This document shows positions 49,674 through 53,152 of a stretch of 64,000 nt of DNA, in pieces (within the stretch, counting starts at the first letter, position 1; each line of letters opens with the position of its first letter). The notes under the pieces are model-generated. The model saw nothing but the letters and a program-made list of their open reading frames with translations, ran no database searches and was not told the DNA's origin. The position numbers and the translations under genes are program-made. This stretch comes from Acidobacteriota bacterium (GTDB lineage Bacteria > Acidobacteriota > UBA890 > WLXD01). The DNA lies in the NCBI GenBank assembly GCA_965248695.1, contig CBDFKD010000002.1, forward strand, positions 4,832,001 through 4,896,000, written 5' to 3'.

Positions 49674-51149
49674 ATGAAGGCACCTGAGCAGTTCACCTCG
49701 CGGTTCGGCCTGCTGGTAGCCGCCATCGGCATGGCGGTCGGCACGGGCAATATCTGGCGCTTCCCCCGCGTCGCGGCGCTGAACGGCGGCGGCGAGTTCC
49801 TCATTCCATGGCTGTTGTTCCTGCTGCTGTGGTCGATCCCTCTGCTGATGGTCGAGTCGGCGATGGGTCGGCAGGCGCAGAAGGGGACGATCGGTGCGTT
49901 CGGCCGGCTGGTGGGACGCAACGCCACTTGGCTGGGCAGCTTCATCGGCTTCTGTTCGATGGCGATCATGTGCTACTACGCCGTGGTCGCCGGGTGGTGT
50001 TTCAAGTATCTGTACGGCGCGCTCACCGGCAGCGTGATGCGCCAGGGCGGTAGTGCGTACTGGGAGGCGTTTCAGGCATCGCCGGTCGAGGCGATCCTGT
50101 TCCAGCTCATCGCCATCGGCTGTGCCGGAGCCGTCGTGTACCGGGGTGTGGTGGCCGGCATCGAGCGCGCTTGCAAGGTGATGATCCCGCTGCTGTTCCT
50201 GCTCTTGCTCGGCGGCGCGGTCCGCGCGATGACGCTGCCCGGGGCGAGCGGTGGCCTGAACTTTCTGTTCAACCCCGACTTCAGCGCGCTGCTCGACTAC
50301 CGGATCTGGCTCGAAGGCCTGACGCAGTCGGCATGGTCGACCGGGGCGGGGTACGGCTTGCTGCTCACGTACTCCATTTACACCAGCCATCGCGACGACA
50401 TCGTGATGAACTCCCTGACCATCGGCTTCGGCAACAACGCCGCCTCGCTGCTGGCCGGAATCATGGTGATCTGTTCGGTGTTTGCACTGGCGCCCGCCGA
50501 CCCGAGCAATCCGCCCGCCGAGGAGCTGCTGCAGCTCGGAGGACCGGGCAACACGGCGTTGAGCTTCCTGTGGATCCCGGAGCTGTTTCAGCAGATGCCG
50601 TTCGGACAGGTCTCGCTGGCGCTTTTCTTCCTGGCGCTGGCGGTGGCGGCGGTGTCGTCGCTGGTGGCCATGATCGAGATGTCGTCGCGACTGTTCGTCG
50701 ATGCCGGTCTCAGCCGCAATCGAGCCGTGATCTTCGTCACCCTGGGTGGATTTCTGTTCGGTCTGCCGTCGGCACTGAGCACGGAGTTCCTGGTCAACCA
50801 GGACAACGTCTGGGGCATTGGCTTGATGGTGTCCGGCTTCCTGTTTGCCGTCGCGGTCAATCGGTATGGCGCGGCGCGTTTCCGGCGCGAGCTCATCAAG
50901 CCGGCACGGAACGACTTGCCGGTCGGCAGATGGTTCGATGTCCTGCTGCGCTGGGTAGTGCCGGCGCAGTTCCTGATCCTGATCTCCTGGTGGTTGTACC
51001 AGGCAGCGGTCAGCGAGCCGGAATGGTGGAATCCGATCTCCTCGTTCAGCCTCGGAACCTGCTTGTTGCAATGGGGGGTGGTGTTTGCGGTCTTCTGGCT
51101 GCTGAATGATCGCATCGCCGCCGCGACGTTGGATCCTGAAGAACCCTAG
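49674..51149 (+). CDS. Sodium-dependent transporter, NSS/SNF family
   Basis: FTSRFG, GMAVGTGNIWRFP, NGGGEFLIP; many TM segments. Confidence 0.94.
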   Translation: MKAPEQFTSRFGLLVAAIGMAVGTGNIWRFPRVAALNGGGEFLIPWLLFLLLWSIPLLMVESAMGRQAQKGTIGAFGRLVGRNATWLGSFIGFCSMAIMCYYAVVAGWCFKYLYGALTGSVMRQGGSAYWEAFQASPVEAILFQLIAIGCAGAVVYRGVVAGIERACKVMIPLLFLLLLGGAVRAMTLPGASGGLNFLFNPDFSALLDYRIWLEGLTQSAWSTGAGYGLLLTYSIYTSHRDDIVMNSLTIGFGNNAASLLAGIMVICSVFALAPADPSNPPAEELLQLGGPGNTALSFLWIPELFQQMPFGQVSLALFFLALAVAAVSSLVAMIEMSSRLFVDAGLSRNRAVIFVTLGGFLFGLPSALSTEFLVNQDNVWGIGLMVSGFLFAVAVNRYGAARFRRELIKPARNDLPVGRWFDVLLRWVVPAQFLILISWWLYQAAVSEPEWWNPISSFSLGTCLLQWGVVFAVFWLLNDRIAAATLDPEEP

Positions 51150-51161
51150 CCGCGGAGCTCG

Positions 51162-51275
51162 ATGATGGATGCAGGCGCGATCGTCATGATGCTGTTCGTT
51201 CTGGGCTTCATCTGGGGCGGGTTCGGGCTGCTGCTGTTGCGGTCGATGCGGATCGATCGGGACCGTGGTGACTAG
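51162..51275 (+). CDS. MetS-like small subunit of an NSS transporter (37 aa, absent from the ORF track)
   Basis: MMDAGAIVMMLFVLGFIWGGFGLLLLRSMRIDRDRGD*; single TM with AIxMM...WGG pattern; GGAG upstream; directly follows the NSS gene. Confidence 0.8.
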   Translation: MMDAGAIVMMLFVLGFIWGGFGLLLLRSMRIDRDRGD

Positions 51276-51822
51276 TGGCCTGTAGCAGATGAACGTTGCC
51301 TATCGTGGTGGCGAAATGGGCTCGGATGCCAGGCGCGACGACGAGACGATGTTGGCCCATCTTCGAGGAGGAGCAACGCCGCAGACGGGCCGATTTCACC
51401 GCCATCCTACGGACAGATCGGCAGTTGCGGGCGATATCGGCGTTGCACCTCGTCGACGATGCCCAGCAGGCCGTGGTGAGAGTGTGATGGGTCTGGCAAG
51501 TGGGACTTACGGGCGAGGGCAAGGATCGACGACGAGGCGATGCTGGCGTCATCGTGCAGGAGGAGAGACGCCGTCATCGCCCGTAACTCCCACTTGCCCG
51601 AAGGGTTATGCCGCCAAGGGTGCATCTCCAGCGTTGCCGCCCCTGGATGATGCGCACAGGCATCACCAGCGGCGCGGCGCCTTGGATCTGCGCCCTTGGC
51701 GGCACAACCAGACCCATCACACTCTCACCACGGCCTGCTCACATCGCCGTCCTCGCCGCGCCTTGATCTCACCCGCAAATCCCATCTGCGATAGGCAACG
51801 TTCATCTGTTACAGGCCACTAG
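51272..51822. mobile_element. 551-bp non-autonomous MITE-like element with 34-bp TIRs and nested internal inverted repeats
   Basis: 51272-51305 CTAGTGGCCTGTAGCAGATGAACGTTGCCTATCG vs reverse complement of 51789-51822: 33/34 identical; perfect 32-bp internal IR 51465-51496/51708-51739; no transposase-like ORF. Confidence 0.85.
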
Positions 51823-51833
51823 GGGCCTGTAGC
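51819..51833 (-). repeat. Additional TIR-like arm sharing the terminal CTAG of the element
   Basis: CTAGGGGCCTGTAGC, 14/15 to the left TIR start. Confidence 0.7.
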
Positions 51834-51850
51834 GTGGACTGAAGGTTTCC

Positions 51851-53152
51851 GTGAATCGCTGGAATCTCGAGCCCACGGCGAAGCTGCACGGCCGGATCGT
51901 GGTGCCCGGCGACAAGTCGATCGCCCACCGCGCCCTGATGCTGGCGGCGGTGGCGGCTGGTACGACCGAGATCGACGGGGTGCCGCGCGGTGAAGATGTA
52001 CGTTCGACGGCCGCGTGCTTGCGGCACCTCGGGATCGACGTCGACGATGCTCACCCCGACGGCGCGACGCGAGTCCGCGGAGCCGGGATCGACGGCCTCA
52101 GGGAGGCTTCGGCCGCGCTCCCGTGCGGCAACAGTGGCACCGCCATGCGGTTGCTCGCCGGGCTGGTTGCCGGCTGCTCGTTCCGTACGATCCTCGACGG
52201 CGACCGGTCGCTGCGCAGCCGACCCATGGAGCGTATCGCGGAGCCCTTGCGGGCGATGGGCGCGACCGTTACCACGCGCGATGGTGGTCGGCCACCGATC
52301 ACGGTCGCGGGAACTCAGCTGCGGGCGGTTACGTATCGGACGCCGGTGCCCTCAGCGCAAGTGAAATCGTGCGTCTTGCTTGCCGCCCTGCGCGCCGACG
52401 GTGACACCGTGGTGCACGAGGAGCGCCCGTCGCGGGATCACACCGAGCGCATGTTGGCATCGATGGGGGCGCAGATTGCCGGCGGGGCGGCGGACGGTGG
52501 CGTGACACTGCGGCCGCGGCCGCAGCTCCGGCCGCTGAGAGGCCGCGTACCAGGTGACGTTTCGTCGGCGGCGTACTGGGTTGCGGCGGCCGGCGTTGCC
52601 GATCGCGCCGAGCTGGAGCTGCCGGGTGTCGGCATCAACCCGACCCGTTCGGCGGTGCTCGACGTACTCCGCGATTGGGGTGCCGACATCGACATCGAGC
52701 CAGGGGCGGACTGGCACGGAGAACCGTGCGCGACGATTCGGGCGCGAGGCGGGGCGACGCTGCGAGGCGGAGCCATCGACGGCCGCTCAGTGACCGCTCT
52801 GATCGACGAGTTGCCGCTGCTGGCCCTCCTCGGACCGCTGACCCGCGAGGGCGTTGAGATCCGCGGCGCGGCGGAGCTAAGGGTCAAGGAGAGCGACCGC
52901 ATTGCGGCGGTGTGTGCGGCGCTACGTGCACTCGGCGTCGAGGTTGACGAGTTTCCTGACGGCCTGGCCGTGCGGGGCCGTCAGGGCCTGACCGGTGGCA
53001 GCGTCGACGCCTGTGGTGATCATCGCATCGCGCTCGCGACCGCGGCGGTATCCGGCGCGGCGAGCGGCCCCGTCCAGGTCGTTGGCGCCGACGCGGCAGC
53101 GGTGTCGTACCCGGGCTTCCGCGAGCAGCTCGAATCGGCGAGTCGGCGGTGA
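51851..53152 (+). CDS. aroA: EPSP synthase (class II)
   Basis: VPGDKSIAHRA, CGNSGTAMRL, RPMERI, SAQVKS, RDHTERML, ELRVKESDRI, DHRIA. Confidence 0.96.
   Translation: MNRWNLEPTAKLHGRIVVPGDKSIAHRALMLAAVAAGTTEIDGVPRGEDVRSTAACLRHLGIDVDDAHPDGATRVRGAGIDGLREASAALPCGNSGTAMRLLAGLVAGCSFRTILDGDRSLRSRPMERIAEPLRAMGATVTTRDGGRPPITVAGTQLRAVTYRTPVPSAQVKSCVLLAALRADGDTVVHEERPSRDHTERMLASMGAQIAGGAADGGVTLRPRPQLRPLRGRVPGDVSSAAYWVAAAGVADRAELELPGVGINPTRSAVLDVLRDWGADIDIEPGADWHGEPCATIRARGGATLRGGAIDGRSVTALIDELPLLALLGPLTREGVEIRGAAELRVKESDRIAAVCAALRALGVEVDEFPDGLAVRGRQGLTGGSVDACGDHRIALATAAVSGAASGPVQVVGADAAAVSYPGFREQLESASRR

Follow-up and report, generated by a model that had tools for sequence, protein, structure and literature searches.

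Between a gene for a transporter of the SNF/NSS family and aroA, the window studied here (a stretch of 64,000 nucleotides from an Acidobacteriota genome of 5.89 Mb in 2 contigs, which we label G000, at positions C2:4832001-4896000) carries a 551-bp element bounded on both sides by CTAG. The transporter gene is followed by a 37-codon open reading frame (ORF) that may encode its small subunit; the match to the small subunit of the methionine/alanine importer (E-value 0.001, 19.2 bits) falls below the curated cut-off of 26.2. An earlier note, made from the sequence alone, had proposed that the element is a miniature inverted-repeat transposable element (MITE) mobilized in trans by an IS630-like transposase and carrying an unusually elaborate structured cargo. 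We find that it very probably consists of two MITEs, one of a family that we call B nested within one of a family that we call A, both non-autonomous and of the IS630/Tc1-mariner type, forming a Russian-doll composite. Table 1 gives the features of the element and its neighbors.

Table 1. Features of the 551-bp element and of its flanks in the window, under the nested interpretation
Feature	Coordinates	Strand	Basis or remark
SNF/NSS-family transporter gene, upstream	49674..51149	+	SNF match, E-value 2.1e-52
37-codon ORF, candidate small subunit of the upstream transporter	51162..51275	+	stop TAG within left CTAG
Probable composite A::B, B nested in A	51272..51822	.	copy matches elsewhere in the genome
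Left duplicated target TA, within CTAG 51272-51275	51273..51274	.	TAG is the stop of the small ORF
Family-A left terminal inverted repeat	51272..51305	+	inverted-repeat search
Family-A hairpin arm 1	51306..51404	.	consensus structure of 23 copies, columns 35-133
Family-A hairpin arm 2, 5′ half, up to the apical loop holding B	51414..51464	.	consensus structure
Nested family-B MITE, subfamily B2, 275 bp	51465..51739	+	own ends and stand-alone copies
Family-B left terminal inverted repeat	51465..51496	+	32/32 with the right one
Family-B hairpin arm 1	51492..51601	.	consensus helices 2-7
Family-B hairpin arm 2	51604..51709	.	consensus helices 8-9
Family-B right terminal inverted repeat	51708..51739	-	
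Family-A hairpin arm 2, 3′ half	51740..51788	.	consensus structure
Family-A right terminal inverted repeat	51789..51822	-	inverted-repeat search
Right duplicated target TA, within CTAG 51819-51822	51820..51821	.	
11-nt remnant resembling a family-A end, adjoining right CTAG	51823..51833	+	direct repeat D2, 94%
aroA (EPSP synthase)	51851..53152	+	GTG start 29 nt 3′ of the element

The outer ends are inverted repeats of 34 nt, 97% complementary (33/34), each bounded by CTAG, exactly where the earlier note had placed them. An inverted-repeat search also recovers the perfect 32-nt repeat inside them and the two arms that had been described within it, here extended to 51492-51516/51577-51601 (92%) and 51604-51630/51683-51709 (85%); a further pair lies at 51358-51381/51438-51461. 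The remaining stems that had been described, 51306-51324/51386-51404 and 51414-51438/51765-51788, match the consensus structure of 23 copies of family A, and it is the minimum-energy fold of the single sequence that pairs A arm 1 and the lower part of arm 2 differently from that consensus. Folding is extensive whichever strand is taken: with RNA parameters it yields -366.5 kcal/mol on the plus strand (z -20.2) and -367 kcal/mol on the minus strand (z -19.8), and with DNA parameters -209.1 (z -20.9), and 0 of 100 shuffles are as good in each of the three cases. The sole long ORF in the element, 51289-51822 (177 aa), runs across both MITEs, does end on the terminal CTAG by way of the right-hand TAG, and matches no Pfam family. 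Contigs from four public runs of one sample span both junctions of the element without differences. Some of those contigs had apparent skips of 276-288 bases; these are other, non-composite copies, and excision at the locus was ruled out as their cause.

What separates the two parts of the element is the distribution of their copies. In a search of the genome with the whole element, the loci matched by positions 1-194 and 465/471-551 form one set and those matched by positions 194-468 form another; the outer set comprises about 20 copies of 277-290 bp elsewhere, and the inner set separate copies of 275 bp. Both families are dispersed, with 123 A ends and 135 B ends genome-wide. When end motifs are paired within this genome, 71 A-end matches resolve into 28 pairs and 15 solo ends, and 121 B-end matches give 41 pairs, 27 of them of 273-278 bp. 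By size, the A pairs fall into 14 copies of 277-278 bp, 4 of 289-290, 4 of 551-566, 1 of 263, 3 of 189-190, and 2 of 126-129. Alignment shows the four long copies to be family A with family B inserted at one point, and the 263-bp copy (G000:C2:3472823-3473085) is a fifth one derived from a composite by internal deletion, retaining both A ends, part of B arm 1, and the B right end. The 27 stand-alone B copies are flanked by CTA...TAG. Copies occur in both orientations and at unrelated loci, and element-related matches are present in 21 of the 41 related genomes searched, the source genome included. We also looked for a transposase beside the solo A ends of this genome, and all 15 turned out to be deletion remnants or shortened copies. 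Many mini-remnants of family A, 44-63 bp long and bounded by CTAG, have one end complete and the other cut down to a few bases; they occur both in this genome (for example, G000:C2:1404183, 2084176, and 3716781) and in metagenome contigs (L208 and L233).

The flanks of these copies report on the target site. TA abuts 108 of 123 A ends (outer base C in 92, T in 12, G in 4) and 116 of 135 B ends (C in 109, T in 4, G in 3), so the duplication of TA within CTAG that had been suggested for the window copy is seen genome-wide, and for both kinds of ends. The paired A copies have 9 flanks that are not CTAG; in 7 of these, only the outermost base is changed, and left and right tetramers then disagree. 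A 2-bp duplication of TA in NTAN, with a strong preference for CTAG, therefore fits, and a 4-bp duplication does not. CTAG is scarce in this genome (4485 sites, observed/expected 0.236), and about 200 of those sites are MITE ends. TTAA (observed/expected 0.105), CTAA, and TTAG are strongly depleted as well.

Can a transposase for these ends be found? In the 2 contigs of this genome there is no DDE_3 match, and a tblastn search using three IS630-type transposases reports one relic only, at G000:C2:4223077-4223235, in which a degenerate A-type end is accompanied by a 31-aa match to transposase residues 222-252 (61% identity) and by a 43-nt match to the insertion sequence described below (93% identity). 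In the order as a whole, DDE_3 matches are present in 8 of 26 genomes, and the IS630 elements examined there end in CTAGT..CCTG..CAG or other CTAGT motifs. We scanned a genome collection with a 20-nt A end, and metagenomes with a 29-nt end specific for the insertion sequence (IS) described below, examining 8 of the 38 stretches that the latter scan returned. The 20-nt A end occurs in at least 84 stretches of the genome collection; most of those listed are in Acidobacteriota metagenome-assembled genomes (MAGs), and the matches listed also include Binatota, Gemmatimonadota, Proteobacteria (among them the cultured Tahibacter soli), and Acidimicrobiia. In these other phyla, the same A ends flank MITEs of 111-169 bp with unrelated interiors, and in some cases, at contig ends, they adjoin the 3′ part of a transposase gene whose frame continues through the repeat and stops at the terminal TAG. 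The MITEs in question are L126, L136, L175, and L188, from Longimicrobiales, Tahibacter soli, Acidimicrobiia, and Gemmatimonadales records. A DDE_3 search of five other-phylum genomes that have the A end returns just a fragment of 25 positions where a contig begins; the IS is unassembled in those genomes.

The full IS comes from the metagenomes. Contig L204:412-1529 is a complete 1118-bp IS with an intact ORF of 355 aa that stops on the terminal TAG, and in this the likeness to IS870 that the earlier note had drawn proved apt. The ORF matches Pfam DDE_3 (E-value 1.6e-24) together with HTH_32/23/29, and it scores 248 bits against the NCBIfam model 'IS630 family transposase' (NF033545), for which the cut-off is 100. 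Of the other stretches examined, L216 and L227 have the full length but shortened frames, just 63 bp are left in the mini-remnants L208 and L233, and L223, L232, and L234 are partial. The A consensus matches the L204 IS at 22/22 nt of the right end and 16/17 nt of the left end, and nowhere else; since only these terminal 22 and 17 nt match, the interior of A is not a deleted transposase, just as had been supposed. In the window, the left A end differs from the IS right end at 1 of the 22 outer nt, where the family consensus is identical, and the final six codons of the right A end read SSVTGH before the TAG, so the ORF 51289-51822 and the IS transposase share the same C-terminus and stop. The distribution of A ends suggests one IS lineage that spread across phyla and spawned several MITE families. 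On everything that can be tested, family A is an IS630-derived MITE, and family B is one in all respects but an identified partner. The earlier proposal of an IS630-type MITE stands in that the element has no transposase of its own and an IS with the same ends exists; the mobilizing transposase that it presumed is gone from this genome save for the relic. Two candidate partners were dropped. The second IS630 type of a related genome, tried for B, has different ends, and the ORFs beside a solo A end in a Terriglobia MAG (L116:1746-3059) are short and broken and were judged unrelated, with an N-terminus that is presumably IS256-like.

Families A and B have more in common than their targets. Each alone folds into a terminal stem with two arms of about 100 nt, and positions 39-190 of the A consensus align with positions 241-89 of the B consensus (72.7% over 154 nt). 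Ends of type A or B accompany 94 of the 96 core regions in this genome. Judged by these alignments, a two-hairpin core is common to A and B and is not IS-derived. We asked how its stems have evolved using an alignment of 40 family-B copies; this genome supplies 29 of them, and seven others of the order supply the remaining 11. Of the cells in this alignment, 98.2% are paired. Changes on both sides are observed in 34 of 83 pairs, compared with 18.9 +/- 1.4 when shuffled (0 of 500 shuffles reach the observed number) and 3-9 in slid controls; in the internal arms, they are observed in 25 of 54 pairs. The internal hairpins are conserved with compensatory changes, then, and the covariation for which the earlier note had proposed a test is present. 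In family A (23 copies), both-side changes occur in 19 of 94 pairs, mainly in the terminal repeat.

The shape of the core bears directly on the nesting. All four arm apices, two in A and two in B, consist of GATG, a short loop, and CATC, and in many copies the loop holds CTAG. In all 6 composites examined (4 in this genome and 1 in each of two sister genomes), B sits at the apex of A arm 2, as B2 forward in three, B2 reverse in two, and B1 forward in one. At three further loci, B or fragments of B ends are inserted at the apex CTAG of another B. About 36 of the 4485 CTAG sites are loop sites of this kind, and they have received 6 of about 45 B insertions, for which a rough binomial P is about 2e-6. 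The multi-arm shape that had been taken for the cargo of a single element is in this light a 275-bp B nested in the loop of an A of about 278 bp, and that part of the earlier proposal has to be given up. In this genome, each of the four composites has another non-composite A as the nearest match of its A part (92-96%), and the A parts of the composites are 85-92% identical among themselves, while three of the composite B parts are 95-97% alike. A sister genome has six composites, 552-559 bp long, which lie at different sites and agree in orientation and junction. Similarity is 93-97.5% between the A parts of the five that have intact ends and 94-99% between the B parts of all six, which fits amplification of that composite as a unit.

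Comparison with relatives places the composite in time at its own locus. The orthologous site is empty in three genomes of the same genus, where the TAG of the small ORF is followed at once by the aroA leader, and such sites read ATAG or CTAG. Empty sites in relatives and many dispersed copies at home are what the reading as a mobile element had implied. The earlier note had also held that the left CTAG supplies the stop of the small transporter subunit. The TAG is indeed the stop; because it is present in relatives that have no element, the insertion regenerates it and does not create it. By this comparison, the stop codon of the small ORF is ancestral, restored by the first G of the element. 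In the closest relative (L061, 92% flank identity), the orthologous site holds a scar of about 30 bp in which both A ends are represented, the left one by 12 nt and the right one by about 7, and then a second TAG. The 11-nt remnant beside the right CTAG in the window aligns with the start of that scar; the site was therefore struck earlier, and the composite entered the regenerated CTAG afterwards. The scar itself resembles either an internally deleted copy or an excision footprint.

How else could the element be read? It could be one 551-bp MITE family whose multi-arm cargo is native, and four full-length copies in this genome, along with the sister-genome composites, whose two parts have diverged about equally and act as one unit with a shared orientation and junction, are what one would expect from it. 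But the inner 275 bp has perfect 32-bp ends of its own and 27 stand-alone copies, the outer part occurs without the inner one in 18 copies of 277-290 bp, and the inner parts inserted at that one site come in both orientations and from two subfamilies. We consider a single native element very unlikely for these reasons. Even less probable, in our view, is a role as a structured non-coding RNA or in cis regulation, as a leader or trailer (for example, a 3′ stabilizer of the transporter operon, or an aroA leader), with the repeats being paralogous RNA genes. The very stable fold and the compensatory changes in the stems would suit an RNA, and so would a mild strand preference in family A (-134.6 vs. 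-115.8 kcal/mol, and 101 G-U-type vs. 70 A-C-type cells over the union of pairs). An open frame of at least 100 codons also frequently closes on the TAG at an element end, in 59 of 108 cases for A and 49 of 114 for B; for other CTAG strand-sites the figure is 2234 of 8771, and the comparison is rough since chance ORFs are long in a genome of 65% G+C. Family B, on the other hand, folds equally on both strands (-139.3 vs. -146.3 kcal/mol, and 38 G-U-type vs. 36 A-C-type cells on shared pairs), an Rfam scan of 50500-52500 on both strands with E-values up to 1 gives 0 matches, and scans of 51000-52000 for sigma-70 promoters and intrinsic terminators give none. Taken together, these three results favor reading the palindrome as DNA rather than as a strand-specific RNA; of the structured DNA or RNA cargo that had been envisaged, nothing points to such an RNA. 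Copies that lie in both orientations at unrelated loci, and the three same-genus genomes that lack the element at the orthologous site, also speak against an RNA function at this locus. Among the 15 listed public runs, none was an RNA run holding the element.

The least likely of the alternatives, with only a very slim chance of being right, is a repeat similar to repetitive extragenic palindromic sequences (REPs) or REPINs, spread by a RAYT (REP-associated tyrosine transposase, IS200/IS605-type), or else an IS5-type MITE with a 4-bp YTAR duplication. The modules are palindromic hairpins after stop codons, as REPs would be, and flanks of CTAG, TTAG, and CTAA are consistent with YTAR. Yet the genome has no match to Y1_Tnp (PF01797), the terminal inverted repeats are long (32-34 bp) with TA flanks, and the A ends are identical to those of an IS630-family IS. 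As for IS5, a TTAG or GTAG on the left mostly pairs with CTAG on the right, and the one right-hand CTAA stands opposite a left-hand CTAG.

There are several points that weigh against B nested in A as two IS630-type MITEs. The transposase with A-type ends is found only in metagenome contigs and, cut by contig ends, in MAGs of other phyla, and in no Acidobacteriota genome searched; of the 16 outermost nt of the A end, just 12-14 agree with the three IS types ending in CTAGT..CCTG..CAG. No autonomous element with B ends was present among the IS630 loci examined, none of the collection scans having been aimed at B ends. Much of the covariation separates the two subfamilies of B and so represents few independent events, and the shuffle control ignores the relatedness of copies. 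The nested junction is irregular: the left flank of the nested B is A instead of TA in all 6 composites, and the right flank is TC in the window copy. Common descent of the junction could explain the left flank, as could survival of those copies that could no longer be excised. Given this irregularity, the TA duplication that we infer for the nested B is taken from B copies that stand alone and from A copies whose loop contains CCCTAG. The junctions gave no consistent scheme for the target duplication of the nested B, or for an excision footprint in the loops of non-composite A copies. Finally, the similarities among the composites suggest histories that fit repeated nesting, recombination between copies, or loss of B alike.

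With these points in mind, the nested interpretation would work as follows. A family-A MITE (277-290 bp, with 34-bp ends whose outer 22 bp are shared with an 1118-bp IS630-family IS) would have received family B at the TA of the CTAG in the apical loop of its second arm. Both families would move, or have moved, by cut-and-paste into TA, preferably within CTAG, under a transposase probably acting in trans. As the element starts with G and ends with C, insertion would regenerate CTAG at both ends, and a struck TAG stop codon would thereby survive. The stems of the core have stayed paired through compensatory change, and the CTAG in its loops would make them landing pads for further copies. An insertion in a loop spares the ends and stems of the host element, so the composite should still be mobilizable as a unit. 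With the transposase lost from this genome, the copies that we see here are most likely immobile fossils today.

How does this compare with known systems? Tenzen and Ohtsubo are said to have reported in 1991 that IS630 prefers TA within CTAG. The IS630-family element ISY100 is described as moving by cut-and-paste into TA, with duplication of TA (PMC2170065). Like IS630 of Shigella sonnei and ISY100 of Synechocystis, the elements described here have terminal inverted repeats and TA targets, and the L204 partner has a single DDE transposase with N-terminal helix-turn-helix domains; unlike them, the window element lacks a transposase gene and has an interior with no relation to the IS, and the cognate IS is absent here but for the relic. 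For IS870 of Agrobacterium vitis, the stop codon of the large ORF is described as depending on insertion into CTAG (Fournier et al. 1993, via PMC13630536). The 355-aa ORF of the 1118-bp IS stops in the same manner, at the terminal TAG, and the MITE retains the last six codons; the resemblance to IS870 is one of design and not a sequence comparison. Correia elements and RUP are IS630-type MITEs of bacteria. A further one, MITEEc1_IS630, is named in PMC11602168. All three are short, non-coding, multi-copy, often intergenic, and foldable, with ends borrowed from an IS and TA targets, as in our case. What differs here is that two types of ends share one core that does not come from an IS, that the stems covary across genera, and that the CTAGs of the loops are recurrent sites of nesting. 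IS1397-like insertion sequences, which target REPs, insert into the loop of a repeated palindromic hairpin; they belong to other IS families and use REPs of the host, while the hairpin described here belongs to a MITE of the same general type as the incoming element. Nested transposable elements, one within another, are known, are described as common among plant MITEs, and are allowed for in pipelines for prokaryotic elements (PMC3852290, PMC5172404). Relative to those, the nesting here is specific to the hairpin loop of the elements' own core, and the composite has itself been amplified in a sister genome. In the excerpts of the literature searched, which did not extend to supplements, families A and B are not described.

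For annotation, the consequence is that the 551-bp gap between the transporter operon and aroA is mobile-element debris, neither a gene nor an RNA locus. The composite is mobile DNA of an ordinary kind, nested prokaryotic elements being already known, and what is added here is the nested reading itself, the autonomous relative of A, the relic, the hot spot in the loops, and the amplification of a composite as a unit. The identified partner is an IS that borrows its stop codon from the target, as IS870 does. Behind two kinds of ends there is a conserved, covarying core of non-IS origin, and landings in its loops yield nests that can still amplify.

A more speculative possibility, which we put forward as worth considering even though we think it less likely to be right than wrong, is that the two-hairpin core, rather than either transposon, is itself the unit of selection. 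A palindrome of about 200 nt, without relation to any transposase gene, would have captured the ends of at least two IS630-type transposons, would carry CTAG, the target that the transposases prefer, in its own loops, and would keep its stems paired across genera through compensatory change, with nests traveling as larger units and the folding of DNA being part of recognition and movement. Cruciforms, or hairpins in single strands, would bring the ends together and expose the loop targets. The excerpts of the literature searched hold no description of folding-dependent movement of IS630/Tc1-mariner elements; if hairpin folding is needed for mobilization or for target choice, it would add a structural layer to IS630/Tc1-mariner transposition.

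One smaller observation concerns the CTAGs outside the loops. In a related genome with 43 DDE_3 matches, all six loci of one IS630-type element (L042, L049, L052, L055, L057, and L059) have an abutting family-B MITE that shares the CTAG with it, and L057 has family B on both sides. The terminal CTAGs regenerated by insertion seem, from this arrangement, to be reused as targets.

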